From Dudresnaya verticillata (taxonomy: Eukaryota), in assembly GCA_977862235.1 (NCBI GenBank), contig OZ374559.1, positions 2,418,001-2,482,000 on the forward strand: a DNA stretch of 64,000 nucleotides. Direction: 5' to 3'. A program made the position numbers and the translations under genes. Shown piece after piece: positions 2,190-58,855 of this stretch (position 1 is the stretch's first letter; each line of letters starts with the position of its first letter). A model generated the notes under the pieces. The model was not told the DNA's origin, did not search any database, and saw only the letters and a program-made list of their open reading frames with translations.

Positions 2190-3558
2190 CCTGCGCGGGC
2201 GGCTATGGCCCATTTGAAGGCACACTTTCGGGCTGTGGTCTATTCAGGCGATGTGGAGTGCTCCTGCGGGAGGGGGAGAGGGAATTCTTCTTGGCAGGCC
2301 GCTCGGATCAGGTAGATGGCTTCCGTTATTTCTTGGAGATCTTGAGGGGTGGGTTCCCGTAGTGCGAGCTTGTGTAGAGTGGTAGCGGGTTGGCGGAGGG
2401 CAGCGCGCTAGGATGGGAGTGGAGGACTCTGGGCTGCGCTACGGAGCGAGACGCTCGGGAACTTTGTGAGGGCCTGTGGCGTATGGCCTGCGTGCCACGA
2501 TGCGGTTGTGTCTTTTGATTGTTCGGTCCTTCGGAGGCTTTGGATGAGCTGATGTTGTAGGTATGTATGGCGGACCTTCAGGGGCTCTATGCGGTAGAGG
2601 GCGCGTAGTTTCCGCAGCCGGGGAGCAGACACGCGTTGCGATTTCTGCCTTATGCAGATACGGAAGAAATGGGAGTCCAGGGAGTCGAGAGCGGTTTCCA
2701 ATTCACTCGTTATGTTGACCAGGACTAGGCCATATTCGTAGATCGGTCTGACAAACGCGTTGTACAAATATATCGCGGAGGCGGCGGGCATTGTAGAGGA
2801 GAGTGAGCCCAAGAATTGCAGTGCGCCGATGGCCCTTTTGGCAGCAGAGATGCGCGCGAGTACTGTAGCGGCCCCGGCCCCGTTGATGTTAATTTCAACA
2901 CCAAGGTACACAAAGTTGCTCCGGACAGGGATTGGTGCACCCGCGATACTGAACGCTGCTGTGCTGGGTCTTGTTCTGTGACGTGTTGGGAGTATTGCCG
3001 TGCACTTGGCGGGGGACCAGGTCATCCCGTGCTTGGCAGCCAATTGATCGCAAACCTGTAGGGCTAAGCGTAGGGAGTGGGGGCACGAGGTCTGTATCAG
3101 CCAGTCATCTTTAAACAACCGGCCAGGTGGGTCTTTTTGTCACTGCGGTGGAGAGCTTCACAAAGTTCGTACGCTAGCAAGTCGATGAAGATATTAAAAA
3201 GGATTGGGCTGAGGGGGGAACCTTGCACCACACCGCGTTGTATTGCAGCCTAGCACGGTGTTGCATCGCCTGCAGTCCGCACATTGAGAGTTACAAAGGT
3301 GCTGCGGATCATTCCAGTAAGGTGTGGGGGGGGGGGGGCCTTTCTTCACAAATGTTGATGAGTTTGTGTCTGTCCACTGGGTCGTAGGCCCGTTTTAGGT
3401 CCAGTACTGCTCTGTAATCTTCCCCTTGGCTACTTGCAGATAGCGTGTGTACGACTGCCATCTCCGCACGGAGACACCTCTGAAAGCCTAGTTGCATCTT
3501 GTGCGGCTTAAAGATTGCCTCCAACTGGAACGCGAGCGCTCGTTCGATTGTTTTTCGT
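2190..3558 (-). pseudogene. Degraded non-LTR (LINE) reverse transcriptase
   Basis: QLGFQR..., VLDLKRAYDPVD, GVVQGSPLSPILFNIFID (3180-3235 rc), FKDD at the YADD position, WSPAKC, YLGV, YNAFVRPIYEYG. Split by frameshifts and stops; 5' part ends at the inverted-duplication boundary. Confidence 0.85.
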
Positions 3559-26755: not shown

Positions 26756-29134
26756 GGTTTGGCGGCAAGGGATGGTAATGGCGGGCGGATGTTTTTTTTT
26801 ACAAATGTTTTACGTGTACGAAGCCCTCGAGGGGCCTCGTACACTGACAAATCATTACTATGGGGAGAATTACTGGCTGGCTCAATGTCAAACAACAGCT
26901 GTGTAACAACCCGGGCGAAATTCGGATCAAGTCGCAAGGTGCGTTGGATCGCAGTAATGTGTTTCCTACCATGGGAAAGCTTTACCTTAGCCAGAGGTAT
27001 CATATTTTCTTTGCAGCGGTTGGCAGGAATCGTTGTGTCGTAAGTTCAGCGGTTGTTGCAGATGTGTCCACGACAGAGATACCTGTCATGATGCGTGACT
27101 GTTTGCAAATACGTCTACAGCCTGAGAAAAAGGCAGCCATTGATGTGGTATCTGCTCTTTGTAGGGAAGAGAACGCGGAAGCAGGCTGAACATACCGAAA
27201 TGGTCGGCAAGGGCGTGCAGAGTATATCCAGCAAGACCCAGCGCTATCCCAATATTTGTGTAAGCTCATGTGGCAATTCACAGCGAGGAAGAGCCCCTTT
27301 TTTCATCCGTGTCCAAGTCAGAGAGCAATAGAAGCGCAACAATTGGGTTCATCTTACGGGGTAAATCGTAGCAGCCCAAAAACTCCACGTGCAGTTGGGC
27401 TTTGGTAGCTCGCGTCAAGTAATACCCTCGTTACATCCACAGCAGACTCAAGTGTCTGAGCTTAGCGCCAGTTCGGATACTGGAGCCGAAACAGACAAGG
27501 TTGGTCGAGAAACATCAGATATTCGCTTGCTTAACTACGCGCGTGACACGGACCCATTTCGGAACGAACCATCTCCGCCAGTTCTGGCAGTCGCGGCACA
27601 TGCTAATATTTCCCGCTGCCCATCTTTGAGGAGGGTAACAAGGAAACGGGTATTAACTTGCTGCTCTTCTCGCATGCCGAGCGGAATACCCAACTAGTCA
27701 ACTGGTACGCAGACACAGCTGTGTTGGAAATTTTATTGTGCGTCACTATTGCAGCGAACGGCCTAGTACACTACGTCCCAGCGTCCCTCTTCTTCGTGCA
27801 GGAAGCATGGATTAGGGAGACTAAATTCAAACGGCTTGGACTCGCGATGGGACACACGGAGTCGGATGATGCGAAGCGACGCCGAGCCAATCTTCTCGCA
27901 TTTGTTGCGCAAGCTCATGATACAATCGCCGCAGCCCAGAATGTTCTTGGGAGGTTGAACAGAGAGCTTAGGAAAATGCAGTTCTTATTCCTTTTGGGTT
28001 CTGGAGAATGGCAAAGCCGGGTTGCAGTCGGGGTGCTATGATGTGCAGGCCTCATTTTGCTTGCAATTCCATCGCAGACGCTGTTTTGTTGTTCTTATTC
28101 TTCATGTTCTTTAAGCACTTCCTGTCCCCTACCAGTCGGGAATTGCAATATTGGCAGGCTTTCCATCCCTTCATGGATAGAATCGCGACTGAAGACAAGC
28201 GAGAAAGGGGTTCATTAAAGACATAAGGTTGACTTCCCATTCTGTCTCAGTAGATTTACTCAACCCCCTTTTCTACTCTATCTTTTCATTGCTCTCATTT
28301 GACATTCTCACTACACGATTAACTCCTCTTCTTCTTCTTCGCTGCTTAAGGGGTTCGTGCAGCTCCACAGTTCCGCGCACACCGAACGGACAGCTCTGGC
28401 GACAGCTGTCCTAACCGCCGTCGGTTCCCGCCTGAAGTGGCGGTAGCAGTGCATGAGGAATTCGAATTCCTCCATGCACTCGCGAGCCTCCCTTAAACAG
28501 CGCTTGGCGATGTCGTGCTGGGCGCGAACATCGATGCGAAGTAGTACCAGTTGTTCGTAGGCTTGTCGGATTGAATTGCGGTTCATGGTCGATGTTGGCT
28601 GTGCACGGGGAGGGAGGTCGACTTCCATCTTTAATACTGTGGACTGTGGACTGCCGCAGACAAAGCCGGTCGCCTGGTGCAGTGGGAACCAGTACCTGAG
28701 CAGGGGTTGGGGGCGTCAAGTCAGCAGATAAGTGCTAACAGTAATGGAATGCCTTTGCTGCTCATCTACACGAGACGTCCAAGTCCTGCCATTCGCTTTG
28801 CCCTTCGCTAAAGGCAATGTTTCATTGCGCCAATGCCTCGGTCTGTGCACCTTGCACCAGAATATGCATGCGTTGGACCTCCTCGTGAAGGAATTGGGCA
28901 TGCTCGTATGTCACCGTGATGTCGTCACAGTTCATTTCTGGGGATGCAGATACCTGATACTAGGTAAAAGTTGGACAATGCAGTGGAAGGGGATTTCTGG
29001 GAGCCTTTAATATCTGGGAAGAGGAAAAGAACCCCTGATCTCTCAAAGCAAGGAAACGACAGACTACCCAATCGTTACTACCTTTTTTCTTGGTGGTAGT
29101 AGTAGTACTGCTGCTAATACCTTCACGGAGCGCC

Positions 29135-30388: not shown

Positions 30389-30563
30389 ATTACAGGAGCA
30401 GTAAAATAATGAATGTGATAGTAGTCACAAATTGTTAGGTTGTACACTCCCACTATTAGGACACAGGAAACATACAGGAGCATTACAGGAGCAGTAAAAT
30501 AATGAATGTGATAGTAGTCACAAATTGTTAGGTTGTACACTCCCACTATTAGGACACAGGAAA
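30389..30563. repeat. 93-bp-period tandem duplication
   Basis: ATTACAGGAGCAGTAAAATAATG...GGACACAGGAAA occurs at 30389 and 30482. Confidence 0.95.
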
Positions 30564-30594: not shown

Positions 30595-31467
30595 TCACTC
30601 CAATGCTTCTTTCAGATCTTGTAGCCTTTTCTTCAAGAATGGCACATGAACGCAGCACCCGGTGCTACGTCTAATCAGGTTCGCTAGGCGCCGCGGATTT
30701 TCCTCGGACTTATCTCCATCACCATCCATACATCCGCAGTGAGGGCCCTTCCCTAGGTCCAGCAGAGTCAGCCTTTCTATCCTCCGCCGCTCATAAAATT
30801 TCTTTCCTCTGTAATTGAACTTATAGTTTCCGTCGAAGTATTGCTGAGAGACGGAGAAGTCTGCACTTTCAATTCCGCTGACGGCGTACACCCTTTCATG
30901 AAACGCTTTGAAAATAGACGTGTCATAGAGACGTATTCCTAGCTCTTCCAACCCGACGATACGTATCTGACGCTGTCTTGCCCGACTGACTATACCCACA
31001 AACCTCTCCTCTCCCATACGCTCGACTGCATCCTTTAAGCTCTCTCCTTCCGAGTTCTTAAAATCGTGTAGGTTCAGGGTCTCGCCTTGTGAGTTGTCGA
31101 CTTCTTCTCTCCCTCCAGAAGCGTTGTGCGTGGACATTTTTAACAGTAGTGCTCCACGGAATAGGTGCAACCTCTGGGCATTCGCTGGAATGAGTGCGGG
31201 TGGCTGTGAAACGCCTGGTTTCGAGATTCCAGCGCTCATGATTTGTGCACAAAAGGGTGGAGAGTCCGACTTTAAGGGTGCAGGCATTTCTGCACAAATG
31301 TACAGAGAGGCATGAAGATACGCAGTGTCACCATAGTCACCCGAGACAGTTTCGGTTGGTGCCGAGTTGGCGCCAACGCGTGGTCTAACTTTGAGTGTGG
31401 ATAGCAGCTCAATACAAATTACTATACCCATACAATCGTATGACCTGCGACTCGCAACCATGCGCAT
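30595..31467 (-). CDS. Orphan cargo protein, divergent from the MTase gene
   Basis: 290-codon open frame (likely start MSTHNA at ~31137). C-terminal HCGC...GCCVH cluster could bind metal. Confidence 0.45.
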   Translation of the reverse strand: MRMVASRRSYDCMGIVICIELLSTLKVRPRVGANSAPTETVSGDYGDTAYLHASLYICAEMPAPLKSDSPPFCAQIMSAGISKPGVSQPPALIPANAQRLHLFRGALLLKMSTHNASGGREEVDNSQGETLNLHDFKNSEGESLKDAVERMGEERFVGIVSRARQRQIRIVGLEELGIRLYDTSIFKAFHERVYAVSGIESADFSVSQQYFDGNYKFNYRGKKFYERRRIERLTLLDLGKGPHCGCMDGDGDKSEENPRRLANLIRRSTGCCVHVPFLKKRLQDLKEALE

Positions 31468-31872
31468 GATTTGGTCGTGAATATCTCGCAGCCTGTTTTT
31501 CGGGTAGCATAGGACTACTGTACGGACTGCAGCCCAGATCTCTCTTGTACTGTAGACCCCCTCATAGTAGTCACACCCTGGTCGGGTTTCGCAGTCCTGA
31601 GACTGGAGAGTTTAGTACCGAGACTGTAGCATGTATCTGTCCACGATTGGTATGAGCAAAATCCATGCACAAGCGGATGAGGTCAATGACAGCGGCTGAG
31701 TCACATGGTTTTAATTTAATGCACATTCTTTCTCTCAAGCAGTGGGAAACGTGGTACATGGATGTATGGGACAAGGGCGGAAAGCTGTGTCCGACAGAGG
31801 CAGTAGTCAGAATTCATTCAGACATCTCATCCAGAACTTCGGCTTACCGGTGCACACGATAGCCTGAGAAAT

Positions 31873-34806
31873 ATGCCACCGAAAAAGAAGAAGGGAGTGG
31901 CGGTGAGATCTGTATCCAACCAAGGACAGACCTCATCAGACATAAGAGCGCCTGTATCATCTGGGAATGATAGAGTTCTGTTCGCAGATGTCGTTAATGG
32001 AGCTACGCACAAGCGAGTCGACCCTCGTCAATGTGTCCCGTTGACCTACGTCCGCCCGATCTGCAGATCGGGCGTCGAGCGATTGAAACGCATTTTCCGG
32101 GGGACCGACCGGTACAGTTCAGCGACATTGAAGTCTCCCGTGGAAGGAGCTCCGGACTCTATTGGTTACGTGGCTGGTAGTGATATGCCTGTCGTTGTGC
32201 CATTGACAGGGGCATTGAGAAGCCGTGTGTCCGATTATTTCAGGTCACAAACAAGGAAGGACTGTACGCGTCGTTCCGAGAAAGAAGTTCAGGACATTGT
32301 GAAATCGAGGGGGGAATGGTACGGAGTAGTTGATGGCATGCATAGATTGGCAGCTATTCGTGAGCTGCTTGAAGAAAACTACAACCAGTGGAAAACCTTT
32401 GACTGGCCTGTGCTGGAGCTGAACCCGCGGACCGAGCTGGTGGTCCTGAAGCAATTCGCTAGACATCAGAATCGTAAGCACGAGGCAAACTGCTTCGTGG
32501 AAACTACCCTGTATAACACATTGAAGGGTCTGAAAGATGAGGCTGATCGCCTTCAAGCGGAGGGAAATGGTATCAAGCCGACAGCAAAAGCGGTTGCGTC
32601 CGCTTACGATGGGGGTGTTCATATGCACGAGAACACAGTGAGGCAGACAGCGCAAGTAGCTTTCCGACTAAGTTATCGTGTCATCGATGCGATAGGGGAG
32701 ATAATGGGGGAAGAAATACCGCAGCTTGCATTGGCTTCACGAAATGGAAGAACTGCTAAATCAGTAGCAGACGATGCCCTGATGCCGTCGATGGACTGCC
32801 GGGTTTTCCGGAAGTTTATTACTCTGAACTCACTGAAGGCTGCCGCAGAGTTCATGCGCGCGGGCCAAATGAGTGGCGTGGTACATGATGAGAGTGTGGA
32901 AGTCCAGGTCTCGACACTCTACCGCATTCGAGAAGTATGCAGGAGGAACGGGTTCAGGCCCGTTCTTTACGGGGTCACCAAATCAGAGTTCGGGAAGGCT
33001 AAAGATGCGCTAGCAGATGTTCGCAAATTCGGAGGCCTTCGTGAATCTGAGGACTGGCCGGGTCCCATGGACACGATGCGGACAAATCTTCTGCGATCCC
33101 AAAAGTTTGATGGCGATATCATGCTTAACAGGGGCAACGACACATTGATTTTGCAATGCATTCTGGATATGTACAAGGACTGTTGCCCGGAAGAGGCCCC
33201 CCTGAAGATCCACAAGTACAATTCTGTTAGAGAAAAGAATAGAAAGGAGGGCGACGAGGAGATGGCTTTGGATCAGGAGGATTTGAATGGAATTGCCACG
33301 CGAGTGCAAGATTCGGGGTGTGTGAATTCCGATCAGGTAACGACCGTTCGAAACAAGGACCATCCCCGAGATGGACAGGAAGAACATGAACACGCATCCT
33401 CTCCTTCTGCCAATCTAGAGCCGTTACCTTGCAGTGGGGACCTTGGTTCGACCGGAGACCGTCTCTGTGACGATGCGGAAGATGTGCAGGGGTCCGCTGT
33501 AAAATCTGCAGCGACAGTGAACACGGAAAAGTCAGAGAGGCTGGCTGTACGTGGGGACAAGAATACATCTCACCACAATTTGGAAGCCGACATCCTGAAG
33601 TCGTTCAGAATAACCTGCCATCAGATGCGGTGGCAGATATTCGACAAGAATGTTCGCGAGGGTGTTGGGGACCTATACGACGCAGTTCTTACCGACACAC
33701 CGTATGGAACGCCTGCATCACAGTCCGGTGCAGGGAAGCAGTACGGCAACTATATGAGTGATTCTGAAATATCTGAGCTTGCAGAAATGTGCAGGCAATC
33801 CGTTGTGCCGGGAGGGTGGGTGTTCATGTTCGTGTCCTACCAGACATTCGAACCTATAAGGCAGGCTCTTCTCAAGGCCGGATTCATTTGCCCAACTTAC
33901 GCCTTTTCGATTGCAAAGGATACACACACGGTGCAGGAGAGGCGAGGAAATGACTGTCCCCAAAATGGCCACGAAATTGCTGTCATGGGAAGAGCCCCAG
34001 GACAACACCCCAACGGATTTAAAGTGGATCTTCGAAGCCCGTACCAATTTGTGAAGGCCTCCGAAAAGAGAAAGTTTGCATGCATGTCCCAAATTCCTGT
34101 TTCTAAGAAGAAGCTTCTTAAACCGGGTACCAAATCTCCGGTGCTTACGGAGGAGAAGAATGTTCAGCTGTTAGTGGAATTGTTGACGACCTTCTGCCCT
34201 GAGGGAGGTGCCATTCTGGACATGTATGCCTGAACGATGACAACTGCAATTGCAGCTATGCAGACTGGGAGGAAGTGCACCTGCATAGAGCAGAGTCTAC
34301 AGACGTACAGGCTTGCAGTTGCAGGCTTGAAAAGGATAGCAGGTGATCATGGAAAATTGTCGGATGGGAGGGAAGGAACACCACTGTGTGGTAGAGAGGA
34401 ACAGGCCCTGGGAGAAGACCAGGGAGCAGCTGTGGAAATTCCGCAACAGAAACGGCTGGGGAATGAGGCGGAGAAGGACTCGGATTGTATTGCAGGAGGC
34501 GATGCTGTTGTTCTGTACGTCGGGTAGAACGTTGTTGGGAAGGCAAAAGTCCAATTCGGGGCAACTTCTGAAGAAAAGGTTCGCAAGCATATTCATCTGA
34601 AGCCCCTGTCGGAATACGAAAAGGCAGGACAGGAACTCATTGCGGTTTATGCCTTCGAATGTGATTCATCCTTTACCACGTTTGCGTATCCGTATAACTT
34701 TCATGTTCCGAACGGCCGCCCTGCCACGAGCCTAGGTGGGCTAGACGGATTCTTTGCCTGGGATCTCCATGCGATGGAAGCCCACGCGCGATGCGAGCAG
34801 AAATGA
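31873..34806 (+). pseudogene. ParB-like domain + beta-class N6/N4 DNA methyltransferase fusion (~977 aa, two in-frame stops)
   Basis: N-terminal PPKKKK (NLS-like). ParB/Srx-like YGVVDGMHRLAA. Motif IV DAVLTDTPYG (DPPY-like, 33691). Motif X-I EKNVQLLVELLTTFCPEGGAILDMYA*TMTTAIAAMQTGRKCTCIE. Stops at 34231 and 34525; the frame continues to TGA at 34804-34806. Confidence 0.85.
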
Positions 34807-36029
34807 GATTAAAGCAATGTTGAGCATAAGAATCGTTCGCTTGAACAGTATGCTACGCCAGTGCGTGGTATCACAAGCCATAAGCACATGCTGCTCTTCC
34901 AAGGAGGCCATATACTGCCGCCGACAGCACCATCCCTGTACAAGTCCACAGCGCAAAAGGTGCATCCTCGCTCGGTCGCAATTACGCAGCAAGGTTTCCT
35001 TCACAAGGATCTGCAGAGTCCGACCGACGCTCTTTCAGCGCATGTGATGAATGTGGAGCGACACGGAAGATCTGCCAACAAGCCCGAGTGAGACTGCTGC
35101 ATTCACAGCCCCTATACCGTAGTACAGGTAGTAACGTATCAGCAGTACTGTAGCAGCGAGGCGGGTCACAGCACTCGAGTTCTGTGACCCGCACAGATAT
35201 GTGAAACCAGAGCTATAATTTGTAGGTGATTGTACTCGCGCAAGACACTTGCGCTTCGCTGCGGGACGAGTGTCGGTCGTTCCCAAATTACTCCAATCGT
35301 GTGAAAACCTATCACAAATTATGGAGAATGACCAACAGCTTTTCGGAAAGCCGCACGTAAATTTCTATTAAACAGGTCATGCGCATCCCGAGATCTCAAA
35401 AGCTATGATAGGTTTTACGAAAATCGAGGCCTCATGTGCTGTTCAATAGCTTTCTGAATCTCACTGGTCGAAAAGCTATCATAGGTTTTGCGATTACCTC
35501 GGGCCAAACACCTGTTTACTAGAAACTACGGTTGCTCGAGCCCAGGACCTATTCCGTATTATGGAGAATGCAAGATAGGTTTTCGGCTCGCGCGGCATAA
35601 ATCGCTCCGGATTTGTGCTACGAGATTTGTCTCGGAATACCTCTCGTAATTTACCGTCGGCGCACGAGAAGCGTTTGGCGCCCGTGCCAACCAAGCGCTT
35701 GTGGCATTCACAGTTAATGCTGAACCGACTTTCTGCGCGTGACGTTGCAAAGCGTGCAGCTTCAGCGGCAGCTTCATCGGCCTTTTCGGCGGCCCGTGGG
35801 TTTCTTCTACCGCGCATCACATCGCTAGCAGAACTTGATGGGGTGGGAGGTTGCGGCCGCGGTGGGGTGGCAGAAGGGTGGGCGGAAGGGCGGGTGCAGT
35901 CTGCCAAACGGCAGTGGGTGGGTGTGCCAGGCGGCTGCAATAGGCTGTGGTATCAGTGCAGTGCCAGGGTGGCTTTCCCTCTCCCTCTCCCGGTCGCCCT
36001 GGCATTCGCGCTTCGGTGATTTCGACACG

Positions 36030-37450
36030 TGCCCTGCTGCATGCCGCGCTTCAGCGAGTGGGTGGTATCGACAATGTTAGTGCGGCGAAGTAGGCCGGCA
36101 ATACTGCGGAGAGGTAGTTGCGGGCGGAGGGGGATGACCTGCGTGGCCTGGATGAGGTGCTTTCCGCGGAAAAGTTCGCGTCACATGATTCAGATCACGT
36201 CAGGGTGCCTGCTGCGTGCGCACGGGCTGCGATTGCGCGTATTAGAGCCCCAGACCCGCCGAGCTCTCCGCATAAGATCAACCAAGTCTGCTAGCTGTTT
36301 ATCGAGCAGCTTACTCTTATCGTCTCGCCAAAAGATGACATGGAGGTCTATCGCTTTTTGTCATTGGAGCATATGGCAACCGTCAAGACTTTTGCAATCT
36401 TCTGCGACGATGACGGCATCTTGTGTGAATTTTCTCTCTGCGCACAGTAAGGCGACAACATCACCCATGAAAGCTTGCGCGGTTGTTCCTTAACATTCTT
36501 GCGTCTCTTGACGACGAGTGCGAGGATCTGAGCGATACATTTCTGGATGCTTCGTTGGCGCCGTTGGTACCCGTTGGAATAATCATCTTCAACTGTCTAA
36601 TGAGCGGAGCGCGTTGTCAACGCGAGTGCGAAGGACCTTCAAGTCCCTCTCTGCAACATGCTGAACGCCTCTGTACAACAAATGAGAAGTTAGAGACGCA
36701 ATGGTTGTGGCAATTGGCGCGGCAGTTGAGGTCGCGAGCGACGGATTGCTAAATCATCTTGCAATACAATTGCGAGACCGGGACTATTTGCTACGAAATG
36801 CCGCTCTAAGGCAGGTCATTGGTTTCTATAATAGAAAGCTGTTTCTATAATAGAAAGCTGGGCGTGACATCCAAGCAGCGCAAAAGCCAGGAGGGTGGTA
36901 GTGTTGGTGACTCGCATACTCGAGAAGACGAAGACTTCGGCCTTGCTTTGCCAAAATCTCGTGACGAATCCGCGTCTAGCATCGATGACAGAATGGAGCG
37001 AAGAATCACAAAGAACAGAAACCCGGGTAATGCGACTTAAGTGGTTGCTTGATGTGCCTGTTCAAGCAAATACAGCACTGAGGAATGCTGGTGACAATGC
37101 CACCGCTACGGGTATTGAACACGTCATCTACGAAAAGATTCCAGGTTACAAAAGCAATGATGAGCATGTTTCCAGGGTAAGACATGTGCTGCTATGTTCC
37201 TTTCAAACCCAGAGGACAGCTGCTTCGCACACGTTATATCATTATCTCATGAACGGCAAAAGGTACGTGAAGCATTGGCGGCAATAGGCAACTACTGTCT
37301 TGCCTCTAGAAGGACCAAATATCAAGCTGCTAAGAATAGCCTATTCTTTCTCACTAAGTGGGGATGATATTTCCAACGAAACTAGCGACGTTGCCCCGGC
37401 TAAGTGTTCTAAAGGAAAAGCTCCTCCAAATAAGCCTGGTTCTTTAAAGA
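36030..37450 (+). pseudogene. Degraded unknown ORF (cargo)
   Basis: Successive protein-like frame segments (~36080-36460, 36483-36752, 36819-37287) broken by stops and frameshifts. No motif recognised. Confidence 0.25.
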
Positions 37451-38100
37451 TGGACATTTATGACGCCCATGAAGTATGAGAGAAGAATGCTACAGCTGTT
37501 GACGGCTGTTCCACAGGTGCGGAAAGGAAATCCGCGCTTCGAGACGCAGTTTCGAGGATTGGTCCCAAGTGACCTATGGACACCTGCTTGCAAGAGCAGG
37601 TAATTCCAATATGTCTGCCTGGATTATTTACGTCTCTCCACTTTATCGCTGCATGTGAGTTGGCTGTAGGAGATAGCAAGCCGTCTTGCCTCTTTGAACA
37701 ATCAGAAGCTGGTACTGGTGTTGGTGGGGGTGAGGCAGATTTTCCGACTGCCTTACGCGGCGTCTTTCGATCGTGTTTCGATAGTATGGCAAGGTATTAT
37801 ACCTTTAAATCACTCTCAGACACTCCTCTGGGCTCGTTCAACGCAATGTGAAAGAGATTTGCGCTATGGTCACAACCTCATTGCACTCTTGTAACTCCTG
37901 TGGCGCGTCGGGAAAGCTCCGAGTATGCAAATCTACAGTTACATGAACGGAGCACCGGCTTTGGCGAGCAGAGCGAGGCGGACGCGTTGTGGTAGAGTGG
38001 CACGGCGGAAAGGCGCGCACAACGGCCCGGGCGGTGATGTGCGCGCAGAGAGATTTACTAATGGCGGTTATCGTGCCATAACGGTTTCGGAGCAGGTCTT

Positions 38101-38642
38101 TTAGGATTCGGAGCGGGAGGATCGTGGGCTGGCTTGGGCCTCAACGGATGTGATCACAGTTTCCAGGGCAAACATTGCCTGCGATAAGGCCAATGTGACA
38201 CTGCGATGAACTCGGCGAAAGAAACTGCCAACCATGCGCAGAGCCGCTCGCTGCAGACGGGCAACCAGCTGACTCAGCTCATCCTGAGCGCTCCTAAGTT
38301 GCTGCAATTCTTCTTCAAGCTCAACGAGTTGCGCTTCGACATCTTCGAGACTTATGTCATCCGTTTGCATCAGGCTTGTTCCGTGACTTCAGACTCCTCG
38401 TTTCTGCGGGCAAGGTGGCGCTGCAAACCCGCGATATGTACTCTTGATTCTGTAAGTTTCTCCTGGATGAAGACAAGCAGACAGTTGATTTGACACACAA
38501 CTGGCCACCCTAGTCGTTGAAGCTCACGCGACAAGTACGATACTGTCTCCCGAATGGCCCTGATCTCCCCCTGTAGTGTAGCTATCTTCTCCTGAGCGGA
38601 ATGCAGCCTCCCTTCTCTTGTCTCTTGATACATGTTGTGCAT
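38101..38642 (-). CDS. Coiled-coil ORF pair (TGATG overlap or frameshifted single gene)
   Basis: Heptad-rich segments LHSAQEKIATLQGEIRAIRE and LEDVEAQLVELEEELQQLR; stop and start overlap at 38370. Confidence 0.4.
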
Positions 38643-39406
38643 AAGGTAGAGTCTGGAACGTTTGTCTCACGGCGAACTTCAAATTTGCAGACTGGTACTT
38701 GATGCACAGGTTGGTGCATGTTCGCAAACTGGTGAAAAGCCAGCTGTAGCCCACGGCAGCTCATTGGATTGACTTGTCCTTCTTCTGCAAGAAAAATCAC
38801 GGGGTATCGAGACGCAAACATCAACGCTGCCGGCAGCCGGGGTCTTACTTCTCAGCCACTCTCGATGCTATTTCTTATCCTTGACGCCCATCAATACTAC
38901 CCGCTTGTGGTCGCATGGCGGAATAGAGCAGTCTGCAGGGCGTACACTTGCGATACCGAGTACTGCTTCTTGATTGACGGGGACTCGAGATTCGCGACTT
39001 GTCCGTTCTGATTGGTAACATGGCACGCTCGTCTCTCGAATCAGACTGTTTTGTTCGCACTGGCGCTATAGTGTATGGCGGAATGGAGTGGTGCATACAG
39101 AGCGAGAGGCAAGCCCTTCCAATACCAGTCGTTTTAACTGGGATCCGTAGCAACTGTGGGCATGCGCAAGCCTGTCATGCAGAACGCCCCACCGCCTCTG
39201 GAACAGTATTATATCGGTGTCGTTTCAGAAGCGCCCTCGGCCCTCCCGAGTATTTCAGCTCTTCAGAACAAGTAGCGCACAGCTATCGCGCCCTAGCGGG
39301 AACATCGATTTTGCTCCTTCACTTCGCCCGCCCTGAGTGCAAGGAGCATCTTGCACTAGTGCATTGCAAAAGGGTCAGACTCCCCTGCCGAAAGGGGTAG
39401 TAGGAC

Positions 39407-40468
39407 ATGGCCCAAGCCTCATCTGGGCAGGTTTCGAAAGCAGCAAGCGTTCCAGTTCAGAACGACGACGACTTCGGCGATGAGCTGCTTCCCGGAACAA
39501 AGCCCGGCGCACGAGTCATGCTAACTCTCAACGGGGAACACGTTGCTCCAGCAACCCTGCTACGACCTCATGATTTTATTGAGGGTGCCGTTGATCCCAG
39601 TGGGCGATTCAGCACATACCTGCACGGGCGCAACCTTGGGCCTCAACAACGTGATGGAGAAGTATGGGTTGTAGTTCACCTCGTGCGATGCCTCCACAAC
39701 TTCAATTCCTACGAAAGCCCGTTCCAGTACAAACCAGGCAGTACGCCTTGTCCGGAGACACTGAGTCGAATGCAGACTGGAAAACACGCCTGGGACCTAT
39801 TCCAGATTGAGGAGCTCGTAACCATCTACAATACAGAGCGCAGAAAAAGCTCAGGTGCAACTGTTTCCGGAGTGGAAAAACGTGCGGTGGCTGACGCTAA
39901 CCCACCAACACCCCCTCTGCTCAGGGGTCGCAAAACCGCTCCTCACCCAAAACAGCAGCATGGTGCGGAAGAAATGGCAGCGGTGAACAGCCCTTCAACA
40001 CCACCGCCAGAGAAGGGCAATGAAGAGGAAGAAGTCACAAAACTTCTGCAGTACACACCTGTACGCCGGCCACCTATGCGTGAACGACCCCGGAAACCAT
40101 CCAAGAATAACGTCCCGGACGCCTTACCAGTCTCTTCGGCCCCAGTGTCTCTTGAAACCACGACTACACCCGTGGAAGAGAGAGATCCTCGTGTAGGCGT
40201 GACAGACAGAGGCGATCCAGATCTGAAACAAAACTCTGCTAGGGCTGTCGGATCTATTCCTTCTCGAGGAAAAGGAGCATGCGACGAAGAGAACTGTATC
40301 ACGTCCGAGCCATGCCCTGCACACAATGTCAGACATACGCCTGAAAGCAGTTCGGGTTTTAGTAGTGGCGCACCAGAACCGGACCCTGATGCTACCCGGC
40401 GTTGGCCGCGAGTACTAACACAAAGGGTGACGTGGAACGAACGCCAGGTGCTGATGGCTCGGAAATAG
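39407..40468 (+). CDS. Transposon accessory ORF / N-terminal part of the transposase gene
   Basis: 353-aa ORF. The N-terminal globular domain (VMLTLNGEHVA..LHGRNL..PFQY..TL..HAWDL) resembles the MTase C-terminus; the rest is low-complexity. It overlaps the next frame. Confidence 0.6.
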   Translation: MAQASSGQVSKAASVPVQNDDDFGDELLPGTKPGARVMLTLNGEHVAPATLLRPHDFIEGAVDPSGRFSTYLHGRNLGPQQRDGEVWVVVHLVRCLHNFNSYESPFQYKPGSTPCPETLSRMQTGKHAWDLFQIEELVTIYNTERRKSSGATVSGVEKRAVADANPPTPPLLRGRKTAPHPKQQHGAEEMAAVNSPSTPPPEKGNEEEEVTKLLQYTPVRRPPMRERPRKPSKNNVPDALPVSSAPVSLETTTTPVEERDPRVGVTDRGDPDLKQNSARAVGSIPSRGKGACDEENCITSEPCPAHNVRHTPESSSGFSSGAPEPDPDATRRWPRVLTQRVTWNERQVLMARK

Positions 40469-42908
40469 AGAACGGTGAGGAGCAATCAGATGCGCCGACG
40501 TTGGATCTGGTGAGCGACGCAGAGGTGGAAGGTGGAAGTGATGGAATATTAGAAGACGAAGATACTGGAAGCGACCAGGAAATTGAGGACCTCACCACCA
40601 AGGACGCGGATTACGTGCCAAGTGCGACAATTTCACGAAGACGCACGGCAGCATGTGAGGCTGAACGGGTCCCGCAAACTCCCAGAGTTGCTGAGGATGA
40701 GACCAATGGCTCCCGAAAGAGAAGTTACCGCTTCTACGCAATACAAAGAAAGAAGTTGAGGGTTGGTGATACTGCATTGCAAAAGCGTCGCAATGCTGCT
40801 CTGGGAAGGCTTGATGAAGAAGACTGGGGCTCCAAGGAGTGCTGAATGCGGAAGCAATGCTTCAAGAGGGTATCGATTGTGTACATGAAAGCCTAGATTC
40901 GCAAACTGTTGCGTATGGACGCCCATGATCGACGAAACTATTTGCACGGGTTGTTGCAGCGACCGGGATGGAATTATTACTTCGACGGTAAGCCAGTATG
41001 CTACACGTTCCTGTAGACGGCGTTTGGGTTTTCCAGGGACCTGCAATATTCAGTCAAACAGTTTGGTGGAAGCCGACCTATGGAGGTGACAATGCCGTGC
41101 CGTATCATCCTCCGAGTGAGGGCAGGGATAAGATACTAAGTTACCTCAACCGGCTTGCTGAGATAACAGCAAGCTGCATGCCCGACGCAGATGAGAAGCA
41201 TCTGCCGTACTTTGATAAGGCTGCGGTCTACGAGAACTTCCTTCTGGACCAGGATAGACCGTATCCTGTAAAAGACCCGCCTCGACTAAACTACTTCTAC
41301 CACGTCTGGAAGCAGCACCGCAGTGACATAAAAGTCCGCAAAATCCAACGCTTCACAAAGTTTTTGGAGTGTGAAGAATTTCGTGCTGGACTTGCCAGGG
41401 CCGGTACAAACCGCAGGCTTGCGGAGCCGTTCCTGCTCCGTAGAAAGGAACACTACAAGCTGGTTACAAAGGAGAGGGTGTACTACATGGAGAATACGGA
41501 AAAAGCTACTTTGTATCCCTCCGAGTACTGTTCACTGCTAATTGATGGCGCGGAACAGAAATTGTTCGGAGTACCAAAGTTCGTGGTCAGCACAAAGGCT
41601 ACGCGTGGACATGCCATAGCAAACAAATTTGTGGGCGCATTGGAACACGGTTCATTGAAGCACCTATCCCTGTTCGTCATGACAGGAGATTTTGAGACCG
41701 GTGCAAATCACATGATCGAAACAGTCCATCGCCTTCTCACAGTCAAGCATAACCATGGCACTCTGCAGCCTACGCTGTTACTGCAGCTAGACAACTGCAC
41801 CCGGGAGAACAAAAATAAGTACATGCTTTCTTACCTGGAGTGCTTAGTCGCGTGGGGTGTTCTGCATGAAGTGCAGGTTTCCTTTCTCCCAATCGGCCAC
41901 ACCCATTCCGATATCGACCAGGCCTTCAGTTGCACAAGCAAGAGGGTCCGATCAAAAGACATGCCGACCATGTCTTGCCTTCTCCGCGAACTAAGCATGT
42001 CATACACGCCGCGTCCATCGGTGGCAAGGTTGCTGCAGGTAGCCAGCTTTTCCGGGCTGTGTGACAAGTATGCATGTATTGGCAAGACTGAAGCATTCTC
42101 ACACTACATATTCTTTCGAATTACTCGCCAACGTGGAAAGGGCATGGGCAGAAAAGCGAGATTCCGCACGCGATGCCTCGTCAAGATTCAGTGTGGAAAT
42201 GAGTGGAAACCACTTGTAACAGAAGCACGTGGCAGCTCTCTCAAACAGGAAGGCTTCATACTATTCACCCCTGACCGCGTTAGGACGCCAGAGACCATAG
42301 CGCGATGCCCACTTGATATGAAGGAGGTCAATGATCGCATACGTTGCACCGAAGTCCGAGCGCTCAAGGCGTCGCAGATCACCGAACTGGAAAATCTTAG
42401 GGATCACGTCTATAGAGATCGAAACGAACCATTTCACTGGGACTTGGATCACGCCCCGGAGACGAATGGGAAGCTGCGAAGCGATAGTAGACAGGATAGA
42501 GACTCCGAAATGCTTCCGAAGATACCAGAAGAGGAGCAACTACCCGCACAGGACCTAATCTACAGCCACAACAGAATGGTGGCCGTCAATTATGTTCAGG
42601 CGACCGAGCAATGTCCTTTTTACGTGGCAAAAGTGATGGAAGTTGTGAAGGGGGACGATGGAAGGTTTCGAAATTGTTGTTGCGGTGGTATGAAGCCAAG
42701 CACACCGGTAATGTTTTCAGTGCAGCTTACAAACCTTAGTTCTACAAAACCAGGCGCGGGGTCGCAAAGGAATGGGAAGAAGACGTCACCGTCGATTGCG
42801 TACTTGTGGAGTTTGAGTCGCTCACTCGAAATAACCGTCTGCCGGTTGCAGTACAGAAGAAGTTGCGCGAGTGCCTTCACAAACAGTAGCGCCCGCAGCC
42901 ATCTGTAG
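40402..42908 (+). pseudogene. Sola-like DDD transposase, degraded
   Basis: Reading through stops at 40843, 40894 and 41014 gives EC*MRKQCF and YYFDGKPVCYTFL*TAFGFS. Core motifs: LLIDG, LQLDNCTRENKNKY, FLPIGHTHSDIDQAFS. A frameshift at ~42661 extends the C-terminal domain to 42889. Confidence 0.8.
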
Positions 42909-43059
42909 AGCAAGGAATAGATGTAAGTTTACTGAGTCAGAATGGGAAGTATAGAGTGAAGGTGATTAGGGTAATGTGTTTGGGAGCTGCTATGAAACTG
43001 GTTTGTTTTCCTGTTCGTCCAGGACTACCACTTTCTATACTTGAGCAGTAGTGCTAGGA

Positions 43060-43610
43060 CGCGAAATTGGTACTGTGCGAGTACTCGCAATTTGCATTGC
43101 AAGGCAAGGAACGCACACCACGTGGTGTGCGTTCCTTGCCTTGCAATGTAAATAGCGGGGTTTGTTTGTGGTCAGCGTTGCAAAAGCGTTTGAGGCAATG
43201 CACACCGGAAGCCATTTGAAGTTAGAGCGGTTGATGTAGTGGTCCAGCACGTGATGAAGTTTCAGCACTTCAGCAGTTGGCGTCGACGGAAATGAAAACA
43301 CGCGAAATTGTTGTTGTGGAAGTGATTGTTATTTGCCTTCCCATGGCAATACGAGGGCAATGATAACACGCGAAATTGTTGTTGTGCGAGTGATTCCTAT
43401 TTGCCTTGCAATGGCAATACGGGGGTAATGACAACTCGCGAAATTGTTTTCGTGCGAGTGGATTGCGTTGTTTGGCTTGCAATGGCAATAGCGGGGGCTG
43501 TTTGCGCAGCGATGTAGAAGCGATTGAGGCAAGGCGCATCGGCAGCCATGCGCAGGTAGAGCGGTTGGTGTCACTCTGCAGTACCTGATGCAGTTTCAAC
43601 ACTTGAGCAG
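43060..43610. repeat. Subterminal degenerate repeats
   Basis: ACGCGAAATTG(TTGTTGTG)-like units at ~43068, 43300, 43368, 43436. Block ~43135-43275 is repeated at ~43475-43610. Confidence 0.7.
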
Positions 43611-55000: not shown

Positions 55001-55417
55001 CCATCCACCGCGACCCAATCGGATTCGTGGTCGACACAGTATTACTACGACCAACCGTATCACGGTGAAGTTGACATGGTACTGCAGATCTACAATAATA
55101 GGCTCCCAGCCTGGGCACAGCCAACCAGGACTCAACGCCCTGGGTGGGTGACGGTTGAAGACCAACCCAACGATATCTGCTTCGAATGCTACGGCATTGT
55201 CCATAAAAAGCCCAACTGTCCACATTTGGCTCGAACCGATGAGCAGTCTTTTGAGACTTTAATAAGAAGACAGTTTCATCAACTATCACACGAGCAAAAA
55301 GCGTGGCTGGCGACCGTTGGCCGACTGCTGGAGTTCGCTAACGAGCGAGTGCCCGCCGGGCCGCCCATAGGGCAACGGATGGATCCTCGTCAAAATTTGG
55401 GTGCAAGTCAAGGGTGA
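52096..55417 (+). pseudogene. Gypsy gag, degraded and interrupted by a solo LTR
   Basis: FDGSDPVSIIGFL..WPEAVNYL|PRTYA..QEPDEDE..FIRGL; Zn knuckle CFECYGIVHKKPNC. Confidence 0.8.
53728..54502. mobile_element. Solo LTR (775 bp) inside Gypsy gag
   Basis: TGTAGTATAG...CTATACTACA termini; TSD CTACC at 53723-53727 and 54503-54507. Removal rejoins the gag frame. Confidence 0.9.
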
Positions 55418-58400
55418 AATCGACAGGTTCAATTTCAACCTCGACTGAACCACCCCATCGACGCTCCGAGGCAAACGCCCAGGTCACCACGCCAAGGGCC
55501 TCTTCTCTTTCCACCGCCTCCACCGCTACCACAGTCACCCGCAATGAAGGCCAAAAAGTAGCGAGGGGGGAACCGGTTTCGGTACACCACATATCCCAGG
55601 TGACATCGGAACCCCCCGATCGGTGCGTTGAATCCAGCTCCTCGAGCTACAGCTTCGAAAGCTTCTCATCAAAGAATCGATCAGCTGGCAGTGAATCTGT
55701 CACTTCTCTTCCCAAGAAGATCTTAGGGCGTCCCGTGGGCTTACCCCCTGGACGGAAATATCATGAGTATTGTAAGGATCCCGTTTGCTCCTTGTCGCGC
55801 TACAATTATAAAGTAGCTGCGTCCATCGGGATTTCTGTTGACGATCTTACTCGTGTGCTCTCCGTACTGGATACAGGGGCAGGCCCTAATCTCATCCGCG
55901 CGGATGTTCTATCACCGAAAGACAAGAAACGGATTTCTACAACACGGTCAATTGTGAACTTGACCTCCGCCTCAAGTCACCGACTAACTACACTGGAAAC
56001 AGTCTCCCTGATAATCAGGCTCGGGTCCTACACGGTTCGGCAACCCTTTGTTGTCGTAAGGGCATTGGCAGTAGATGCCATATTGGGTTGCACGTTTATC
56101 GATACCCACGTGGAAGGGTTACGCGTCCGCCAACAGAACATGGTTCTTCGCTACGGGTCCATTCACCCAATTCTACGCCGCCGATGCGGTATAACTCGTG
56201 AGGGCAGGTCTGACGAACCAATGGACGTTCCCCCGTTACCTACCTCGCGACTCATTCGCATCGCACAACCTACTACTTTACTGCCCGGCAGTGAGTCATG
56301 GGTTCCTGTTACCTGTTCCGCCAAAGGAACACATTTCCTGGAATCCCTACCCCGCTTATACGAGCGCCGACAAGTCGTGTTGACGAATGGAATCGTCAAC
56401 ATTCAAGAGAACCGGCTCTTTCACGTCAAGGTCGCGAACTTTTCTTCGCGTCCTCAACGGCTTTCCAAGAATCAAAGCCTTGGAAAGGCTGTACCGGCAC
56501 CCACGCAGACGCCGGTCTACACTGTCTCCATCGAGGATAATTTTCCTAACAGTGACTTGCTTCCCTCGTCCGAAACATTCTCCGATGTAGGGGGCGGGGC
56601 TTGCCGCTGCTCTGAAGATGGATATAGACTCTAAGCATGGAATCAAAATCGCGACATCAGCGACAACCGCTAGTACCGTTGATGACCTCGCGCTGGAACA
56701 CCTGTCCACTTCGGATCGGCGCCGCGTGCTCAAAATGCTGAAACCGTTCGCCGGTATGTGAGACGGACAACTCGGCACTATTAAGATGGCCGAACACCGT
56801 ATTGAGCTTCAAGAAGGTTCGAAACCTGTGTTTACGCAACCTTATCGGTCGGACCCTAAAGCCCGTCAAGCAGAACAGGATGAGGCCGACAAAATGCTCA
56901 AAGAAGGCGTTATAGAGCCTGCACGCTCTGAGTTTGCCAGCCCTGTCGTTTTGGTTAAGAAGCCCGACGGGTCACTCCGCTTTTGCGTTGACTATCGCAA
57001 GCTGAACGCGATTACAGTGAAGGATACTTATCCTCTGCCGCGCATGGACGAGTGTTTGGACTCCCTGGGCGAAGCCCAATATTTCACAACCTTAGATTGC
57101 AACTCAGGCTACTTGCAGATTCCGGTTTCCCCGGAGGATAAGCATAAGACTGCTTTTACTTGTCATGCGGGCTGCTTCCAATTTTGCAGGATGCCCTTTG
57201 GGCTATGCAACGCCCCGGTGACCTTTCAGCGAACGGTTGACATCCTCTTGTCAGGATTTCGACGGAAATCGTGCCTCGTATACCTCGACGATATTATCTT
57301 ATGCTCCGCGACTGTCGACGAGCATGTCACGCATGTAAGAGAGATTCTCTCTGTATTACAAGAAGCAGGGGTCTCCTTGAAACTTAAGAATTGTAACTTC
57401 TTCACAAAGAGTGTCGACTACTTAGGGCACGTCATTCGTCCGGGTTCATTAGAAGTGGCGACTAAGAATACGCAAGCCATCGAAGGCTTCAAGGAACCGA
57501 CCACCCAGACCCAGCTAAGGTCTTCCATCGGTCTATGCAACGTCTACAGGCGATTCGTACCTAACTTCGCTCGCGTGGCGGCCCCGCTCAATGCCCTCCT
57601 ACAGAAGGAAGTGGGATTTGAACTACCGCAGTTCAATGAACGTCAATGCGAGGCGTTCGGATTGTTGAAGACAGCGCTAATAGCGCCTCCTATTCTTAGG
57701 TTGCCACAAGAGGGTAAGGCCCTATCGGTGGATACCGACGCGTGCGACTACCAAATTGGCTGCGCGCTAATGCAAGCCGAAGAAGACGGGACTCGACACC
57801 CCATAGGGTCTGGAGCTGAGGACAGACGAAGGCAGGGAAGAATTATTCTGTAGGCGTAAAGGAGTGCCTCGCAGTGGTCTGGGCGGCACAATTGCTCAGA
57901 CCATATCTAGAAAGGTCCCACTTTGACCTGTATACAGACCATCAAGCGCTGAAATGGATGATGAGCATGACAGATGCTTCTGGACGGTTGACCCGTAGGA
58001 GATTACGCCTCCTGGAATACGACTTCACGGTCCCGTACCGAAAAGGCAAAAAGAATCAGATTGCTGATGCCGTATCTCGGTTGCCCACGTATGGCTTCAC
58101 GCCATGGGAACCGGACCTGGAGATCCCGTGTTTAGCCCTCGAGACTGATCCGAGGGACGAACCCTGCGAATGGTCGCGACCGGAGCCCAACACGCGACCG
58201 TTGGAAGCGTGGGAAATCGAACCCGTCGATGAGTCCGATACGGATGACGAAATGGTCATCGCCCAAGTGGCTGAGAAGGAATCTGGACAAAAGGGACTAT
58301 CCCTCATCACCACAGAAGAGTTGCTCCGTGAACAGAAAACAGATGAATTCTGTATCTGGGTCCAAAGAAACTTCGAGGCCGGGAAGCCTGGTTGTTATCT

Positions 58401-58855
58401 CGAGGACGAACGAGGAATCCTAATCCGGAAGTCGTATGTCGACAACGCGATACAGGTTCTCATACCTCGTTCTCTTAAGGAAAGGGCGTTACACCTAGCC
58501 CACTATCCCGAAATGGCGGGACACCCGGGTGGCACCCGGATGTACCATAACCTGCGAAGACAGGTATATTGGCCAGAGATGGCTGGATGTGTACGCCACA
58601 GTGCGTAATTGTGTCAAGTGCGTGCAAGAGCGGGTGAAGTTGCGGAAACATGCTTCGCACATGAAACTCTTCCCGGCGACCATGCCGTTGGAGTTTGTAG
58701 GAATCGATATCCTGGGTCCGTTACCTCGCTCTGGGAAAGGAAACGAGTTCCTGTTGGTTATGACGGACCGCTTCTCAAAGCTGACGCGAGCAATACCGAT
58801 GAAAACGGTAACCGCCTATACAGTGGCGAAGGCGTTTTGCGACCATTGGGTCTGA
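55414..58855 (+). pseudogene. Gypsy pol (protease, RT, RNase H, N-terminal integrase), frameshifted and truncated
   Basis: LDTGAGPNLI; RFCVDYRKLN, MPFGL, YLDDII; TDACD, TDHQAL, ADAVSR; H..GHPG..YWP..CVKC; IDILGPLP..DRFSK. Ends at FCDHWV, before the rest of the catalytic core. Confidence 0.95.

Follow-up and report, generated by a model that had tools for sequence, protein, structure and literature searches.

Accessory genes that join a ParB-like domain to a DNA methyltransferase (MTase) have already been published for algal transposons. The 21.5-kb Ectocarpus transposon Sola1-1_Ec32 carries such a gene (PMC12477816), and related accessory genes are described in red and green algae (PMC12477816; bioRxiv 10.1101/2025.02.11.637652). 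In the red-algal Plavaka transposons, PAG2 combines an N6-adenine methylase with SET, and PAG3 a ParB-like domain with a 2OG oxygenase (bioRxiv 10.1101/2025.02.11.637652). Here, we analyzed a 64,000-nt stretch of DNA from Dudresnaya verticillata (contig OZ374559.1, positions 2,418,001 to 2,482,000; this whole stretch is referred to as the window, and all coordinates are those of the window), which holds a transposon relic with two decayed genes. One encodes a ParB-like/beta-class N6_N4 DNA MTase with a tail domain (31873–34806, plus strand), and the other a DUF7869-type DDE/D transposase (39407–42889, plus strand). As judged from the sequences, the end of the MTase and the beginning of the transposase are homologous copies of one domain of about 95 residues, and this shared domain is the new part with respect to the published systems. 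Full-text searches, whose coverage left out supplements and Iyer et al. 2011 (cited by PMC12477816), retrieved no published description of it. Algal transposons with ParB-methylase accessory genes have been noticed only recently, and the domain offers a handle on how the enzymes that they encode are aimed.

The locus resembles Sola1-1_Ec32, where a protein of about 1000 amino acids, ParB-like and with an N4C/N6A-type MTase, is encoded beside the transposase and has been proposed to act on its own element by binding and modifying it (PMC12477816). However, the accessible text of that paper names two domains and mentions none that the transposase shares (the two systems are compared by description only), and it places the accessory gene on the strand opposite to the transposase, whereas the MTase gene in the window lies on the same strand. 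Like the PAGs, the locus carries transposon-borne ParB-like and adenine-methylase modules, which are long conserved and move between transposon families, but the transposase superfamily in that case is EnSpm/Plavaka, and the available part of the preprint describes no shared terminal domain (bioRxiv 10.1101/2025.02.11.637652). A small reader barrel ending a mobile-element enzyme is also a feature of chromovirus integrases and of the DAM/DNMT-carrying "EpiLTR", and the latter likewise unite DNA-methylation writers and reader domains inside one element (bioRxiv 10.64898/2026.05.21.726589). Unlike the locus under study, the "EpiLTR", as outlined in the accessible portion of that preprint, are retrotransposons with recognized chromodomains in one polyprotein, whereas the domain found here is an unrecognized one and recurs in separate proteins encoded by a cut-and-paste element.

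An earlier model-made reading of the window (hereafter the original prediction) had claimed that the same domain is present at the MTase C-terminus and at the start of the open reading frame (ORF) beginning at 39407. The residue strings it quoted from both places (34507–34767 and ORF 39407) are present letter for letter in the translations. Copy A, at the MTase C-terminus, spans 34498–34791 on the plus strand, with a TAG codon (34525–34527) interrupting its first hairpin, and copy B, at the transposase N-terminus, spans 39497–39832 on the plus strand, i.e., residues 31–142 of ORF 39407. A BLASTP comparison of the MTase tail beyond the stop with ORF 39407 gave 26.9 bits (E 4e-5, 16/66 residues identical). 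The Smith–Waterman local score of A against B was 62, a value reached by none of 2000 shuffled versions of A (mean 25.3, standard deviation 4.4) and by none of 2000 shuffled versions of B (mean 25.5, standard deviation 4.4). The strongest homology test was provided by two cross-profiles built without the window sequences. Segment B was recognized with 53.2 bits by a profile made of 34 foreign MTase tails, against a maximum of 5.4 among 2000 shuffled decoys, and segment A with 60.1 bits by one made of 14 transposase N-termini (maximum among 2000 decoys, 8.3). Segment A also matched both groups of relatives directly, namely MTase tails (P0076 at E 1e-16, P0075 at E 2.6e-16) and residues ~5–110 of the transposases P0066, P0041, P0003, P0050, P0048 and P0046 (E 1e-9 to 9e-4 in a set of 74 sequences).

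A and B are only 21–24% identical, and this low value might be taken to favor a chance resemblance; a local duplication limited to the window copy is the other trivial origin of such a likeness. Both are refuted, to the point of being negligible, by the absence of any equal score among the shuffled sequences, by the foreign profiles at 53–60 bits, and by the wide occurrence of the domain: a search of 1.84 billion representatives with a profile made from 11 copies retrieved 218 proteins at E <= 1e-3, 90 of them at E <= 1e-10. The low identity indicates rather that A and B are old paralogous domains and not the products of a recent duplication within the window copy. The results thus clearly uphold the claim of a common domain.

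The MTase gene was delimited by tblastn with its relatives. The 786-aa ORF 31873–34233 stops at a TGA (34231–34233), and the frame continues past this codon to the TAG at 34525–34527 ("VVLYVG*NVVGKAKV") and then through "GFFAWDLHAMEAHAR" to the last stop at 34804–34806. The relatives P0075, P0076 and P0077 align end to end and in a single frame with 31837–34782. These intact proteins of 946, 1010 and 944 amino acids show a common order, with the ParB-like "WYGVVDGMHR" followed by motif IV DPPYG, motif I "YAGT", a variable linker, and the shared domain at the extreme C-terminus. The window copy has lost the G of motif I to the TGA and has DTPYG in place of DPPYG as its motif IV. Because the TGA truncates the ORF at motif I, ORF 31873–34233 scores only 16 bits with Pfam N6_N4_Mtase (PF01555), below the gathering cut-off of 26.7 bits, while P0075, P0076 and P0077 reach 52.3, 45.9 and 45.7 bits, respectively. 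Among PDB entries, the profile of the MTase family matched DpnA (2e-14) and CcrM (4.5e-8). The DGxHR-type, ParB-like "WYGVVDGMHR" is conserved across the family; in Pfam, the ParB-like region found only a weak DndB match (E 0.19) and no match to a ParB model.

The original prediction had treated ORF 39407 as a transposase-linked ORF. The tblastn comparisons correct this view: relatives' full-length proteins map over four frame pieces, all on the plus strand (39407–40468, about 40522–41097, 41094–42662 and 42665–42889), so that ORF 39407 is the N-terminus of the transposase itself, within a gene that frameshifts have turned into a pseudogene. In P0003, residues 15–110, 257–376, 396–905 and 887–977 correspond to the four pieces, and the matched parts are the shared domain (39509–39817), a Cys-rich stretch (about 40522–41097), the catalytic core (41094–42662) and a C-terminal small domain (42605–42883). 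The core was identified by Pfam as DUF7869 (PF25273; 148 bits, E 3.3e-43, above the cut-off of 26 bits) in ORF 40998–42908, which retains DGAEQ, DNCTRENKN and GHTHSDIDQ, in agreement with the conserved acidic motifs of the family. The second piece contains three in-frame stops, and the last piece one (42737–42739). The Cys-rich stretch is a separate conserved region upstream of the core. The C-terminal small domain (42605–42889, plus strand), which aligns with relatives' C-termini after a change of frame, is possibly BAH- or chromo-like, the equivalent part of P0041 giving a weak Pfam BAH match (E 0.043); it belongs to a different family and is not matched by the shared-domain (A/B) profile. 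A sequence search with the window transposase in PDB found no match.

The shared domain itself found nothing in Pfam at E <= 1 with either A or B, no consistent family among 11 copies at E <= 10, and, with its profile, nothing below E 0.5 among PDB sequences. The likeness to a domain of CACTA TnpA-associated proteins (Transposase_23) suggested in the original prediction was not borne out: none of the 11 copies matched a transposase-associated Pfam family at E <= 10, and no family of the CACTA kind (Transposase_23/24) was present in any of 48 long proteins carrying the domain. AlphaFold2 models were obtained for the window transposase copy (predicted local distance difference test, pLDDT, 83; predicted template modelling score, pTM, 0.76) and for the MTase tail of P0075 (pLDDT 95, pTM 0.85). 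They have an identical strand order and the same two nearest PDB chains, KOW 5ohq_A (Z 4.6) and the PHF19 Tudor 6wau_A (Z 4.4–4.5), and by these two signs the predicted folds agree with each other. The top Foldseek matches were PWWP domains (E 0.24 and 0.67), with nothing at Foldseek E <= 0.001 and nothing at Z >= 5. The models thus indicate that the domain in both proteins is one SH3-like small barrel, which matches no known family convincingly.

Among polar and aromatic positions, conservation over the 138 copies is strongest at H36 (89%), Y67 (78%), Y69 (89%), E/D75 (94%), W92 (98%) and D93 (92%), together with P68, which lies within Y67-P68-Y69, and P78. The predicted barrel and the residues Y67, Y69, W92, D93 and E/D75 invite a comparison with the Royal family (Tudor, PWWP, chromo, BAH), whose SH3-like barrels hold methyl-lysine or methyl-arginine in an aromatic cage. 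DNMT3 is a familiar example of a DNA methyltransferase with a PWWP reader. In chlorophytes, Dam-type MTases occur with BMB/PWWP (PMC4738411). Like these PWWP- or Tudor-fused enzymes, the MTase studied here carries a barrel of the Royal-family kind, which in the described cases is thought to set the site of action (PMC4738411, as far as its accessible text goes). Unlike them, the shared domain has no Pfam match to PWWP or Tudor, and the structural match is weak.

We propose, tentatively and with a probability of about 0.45, that the barrel serves both enzymes as an address tag and has a peptide or a protein as its ligand. Placed at the end of the MTase and at the beginning of the transposase of the same transposon, it would bring both to one chromatin mark or protein partner, e.g., a host factor or the modified tail of a histone. 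Such a ligand is suggested by the acidic character of the domain, whose mean net charge is −3.8 in MTase tails, −2.2 in transposases and negative in all three architectures described below, combined with a His/Tyr/Tyr/Trp/Asp-Glu cluster like that of Tudor, PWWP and chromo readers. On this reading, it would be the ParB-like domain in the MTase and the Cys-rich region in the transposase that recognize the element by its sequence, and the shared barrel would provide the common location. We prefer this address-tag reading because the domain is terminal and acidic, bears the aromatic/acidic cluster, has reader-like structural neighbors, and is accompanied in both proteins by other candidate DNA binders.

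These same features bear on another possibility, namely that the domain binds nucleic acid and recognizes either the element's own subterminal repeats or DNA that the MTase has already methylated, enabling the transposase to find marked copies. The N-termini of transposases are usually DNA-binding, which raises a general expectation of this kind; some PWWP, KOW and SH3-like barrels bind DNA or RNA, and 6kco_A, a "PWWP in complex with ssDNA", was among the structural neighbors (Z 4.0–4.2). The proposal that ParB-MTase accessory proteins bind their own transposon and modify it points in the same direction (PMC12477816, in its available part). However, the net charge is on average negative across the three architectures, the domain has no helix-turn-helix or zinc motif, and candidate binders are already present in both proteins, which makes nucleic-acid binding unlikely. 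The original prediction had spoken of a shared DNA-targeting or interaction module. One shared module it indeed is, while direct DNA targeting is not favored because the domain is acidic on average; we retain the address tag with a peptide or protein ligand as the preferred reading.

To see where else the domain occurs, 167 stored domain-matching proteins were classed by their core, near-identical cluster members being counted. The domain is C-terminal in all 36 ParB-like/N6_N4 MTases, N-terminal in 15/15 transposases, and N-terminal in each of the 11 members of a third, ParB-like family; the rest are 99 short fragments and 6 unclassed proteins. It is thus always terminal and, among the proteins examined, restricted to these three architectures, and no host-type architecture carrying it was found among them. 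Pfam assigned 19 of the 48 listed matches of at least 300 amino acids to N6_N4_Mtase (17 above the curated cut-off), six to DUF7869 and one, weakly, to MazE, leaving 22 with none. The domain represents a sizeable unannotated family (218 representative clusters) and a marker of this element family in environmental eukaryote data. Found on the MTase, the transposase and the third family, it is one ~95-residue module, i.e., a concrete, testable handle on their possible joint action.

The proteins of the third family (P0136, P0146, P0158, P0175, P0179, P0185, P0191, P0210, P0213, P0229) are 700–1377 amino acids long and are located on environmental contigs of 3–24 kb; none is encoded in the window. 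They begin with the barrel domain, which is followed by an invariant D-G-x-H-R (ParB-like) and a conserved C-terminal part, an order that recalls PAG3 in layout alone (bioRxiv 10.1101/2025.02.11.637652, in the part available). The family gave no meaningful match in Pfam or PDB. When it was compared with the MTases by hhalign, the match was confined to the domain (probability 99.3, E 7e-21, 104 columns), and the same comparison with the transposases revealed no relation.

The terminal position on three different element proteins would also suit a homotypic or heterotypic association module, by which the MTase tail binds the transposase head or co-oligomerizes with it and methylation is physically coupled to transposition. 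Ring-forming Sm/LSm folds are among the equal-ranked structural neighbors (Z 4.1–4.2), which agrees with such a role, and so does one feature of the domain tree. The domain sequences group by architecture (6 label changes vs. 23.0 in shuffles, 0/200 as low), and 13 of the 15 transposase copies form one clade (support of 93 in the Shimodaira–Hasegawa-like approximate likelihood ratio test, SH-aLRT), with P0003 and window copy B falling among the MTase tails. This placement, however, is not significant, as one clade of all transposase copies is compatible with the data in the approximately unbiased (AU) test (p 0.23), and the domain is missing from the transposase ORFs in four probable same-contig pairs (see below). 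We regard the association module as possible but doubtful and keep to the address tag. A domain swap between MTase and transposase had also been a candidate; it was dropped, the single 15-copy transposase clade not being rejected in the same test.

Scans of metagenome and viral data for relatives' DNA gave no matches, a genome-contig scan returned nine distant transposase loci on short contigs of metagenome-assembled genomes, with neither the domain nor the MTase, and a word-indexed search with residues 25–145 of ORF 39407 found no matches at near lengths. An Atlas search with the domain reached a best score of 0.86, which serves as a lead only.

The data support the view, put forward in the original prediction, that the MTase is a conserved component of the element family rather than random cargo. 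Homologues of 944–1010 amino acids keep the whole layout, every one of the 36 MTase cores has the tail, and accessory genes of this kind are on record (PMC12477816, accessible part). Furthermore, four MTase/transposase pairs of the same source come from contigs of equal size that have room for both genes (7926, 9936, 8751 and 17291 nt), and each pair probably shares one contig, as far as matching sizes alone can tell. The proteins concerned are P0075/P0001, P0082/P0004, P0127/P0015 and P0108/P0028. A fifth size match (4334 nt, P0148/P0025) is too short for both genes, and the size proxy can therefore mislead.

Several observations weigh against the address-tag reading. First, only six of the 74 transposase homologues found at E <= 1e-5 carry the shared domain (proteins of 894–1057 amino acids, at residues ~5–110). 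Of the homologues that have 250 or more residues ahead of the core, 6/14 are carriers, and of those that have 330 or more, 5/7. Either the domain has been lost many times, or gene predictions often fail to include it; by this count, it may be dispensable for transposition. The transposase ORFs of the four probable same-contig pairs (P0001, P0004, P0015, P0028) are likewise without it. Second, the structural matches are weak and generic for small barrels, Sm and KOW domains, which bind RNA or oligomerize, scoring like Tudor and PWWP, and the conserved aromatic/acidic cluster could be purely structural. Third, only P0075, P0076, P0077 and P0127 among 13 aligned MTase relatives retain DPPYG and YAGT, while motif IV is degenerate in the other nine (e.g., DPPCG, EPPSS, QAPVH). 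The "writer" may therefore often be inactive, and many members of the family may be catalytically dead. Together with the low share of transposases that carry the domain, this speaks against an essential role of any kind. Finally, the window copy itself is a dead, decayed relic, the MTase carrying two nonsense codons and the transposase four, as well as at least three changes of frame, and hence the window says nothing on activity.

A more far-reaching idea is that a private "address" domain on the transposase, the adenine-methylase writer and the third, ParB-like protein makes up a write-read-move circuit. We consider this quite improbable at present; if true, the element would mark DNA or chromatin, and the same reader would direct or license its transposase there.

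The likely extent of the element was deduced from a pair of inverted repeats. The candidate left terminal repeat ACTTCCCATTCTGTCTCAGTAGATTTAC (28232–28259, plus strand) pairs with 42923–42950 (minus strand), the candidate right one, which lies 34 nt past the transposase stop. The pair forms an inverted repeat of 28 nt with 89% complementarity, its 21-nt core occurs in the 64 kb at these two sites only (shuffles expect 0), and both the MTase and the transposase genes are located inside it on the same strand. No target-site duplication was seen at these repeats (flanks TTG vs. ATA), and we thus consider them as candidate element ends only. The candidate repeat begins with ACTTCCC and not with CACTA, and the transposase is of the DUF7869 type, so that the assignment of the element to CACTA transposons, implied in the original prediction, did not hold.

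A link to Zator/ISAzo13 was also tried. Zator and ISAzo13-like transposases produce a 3-bp target-site duplication (PMC10045372, in its accessible text). The sole hint at ISAzo13 came from an Atlas cluster where 11% of the members carry that family; Pfam DDE_Tnp_ISAZ013 matched 0/11 transposases at E <= 10, the trinucleotides at the candidate ends differ as given above, and the link was rejected.

Repeats of other kinds were found around the candidate ends. A near-perfect 36-nt palindrome (43086–43157) lies just outside the candidate right repeat and is followed by a 68-bp tandem array of 3.1 copies (43284–43498) made of the motifs CGCGAAATTG and TTGCCTTGCAATGGCAATA, which within the window are confined to the region 43047–43610. 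The arrays of this region could be putative ParB-type binding arrays, and the true end of the element might lie beyond them, outside the candidate right repeat. A minus-strand ORF of 290 aa without a Pfam match (30595–31467) separates the candidate left repeat from the MTase gene, and a 93-bp unit is repeated 1.9 times with 100% identity upstream of the MTase gene (30389–30563). The MTase and transposase genes are separated by a 4.6-kb spacer (34807–39406), far exceeding the room available on the probable shared contigs of relatives. It contains the minus-strand, coiled-coil-like ORFs 38101–38370 and 38370–38642, with weak Prefoldin_2 and ZapB matches, and may represent an insertion or the remains of another gene.

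As a whole, the window has few long ORFs and looks like repeat-rich eukaryotic DNA, and the element sits within a transposon-rich region. A weak reverse-transcriptase match was found at 2408–3118 (RVT_1, 18.5 bits, below the 29.6-bit cut-off), and a Ty3/gypsy-type reverse transcriptase, an RNase H and an integrase zinc-binding domain are encoded at 55414–58608 (ORFs 56786–57853 and 57874–58608).

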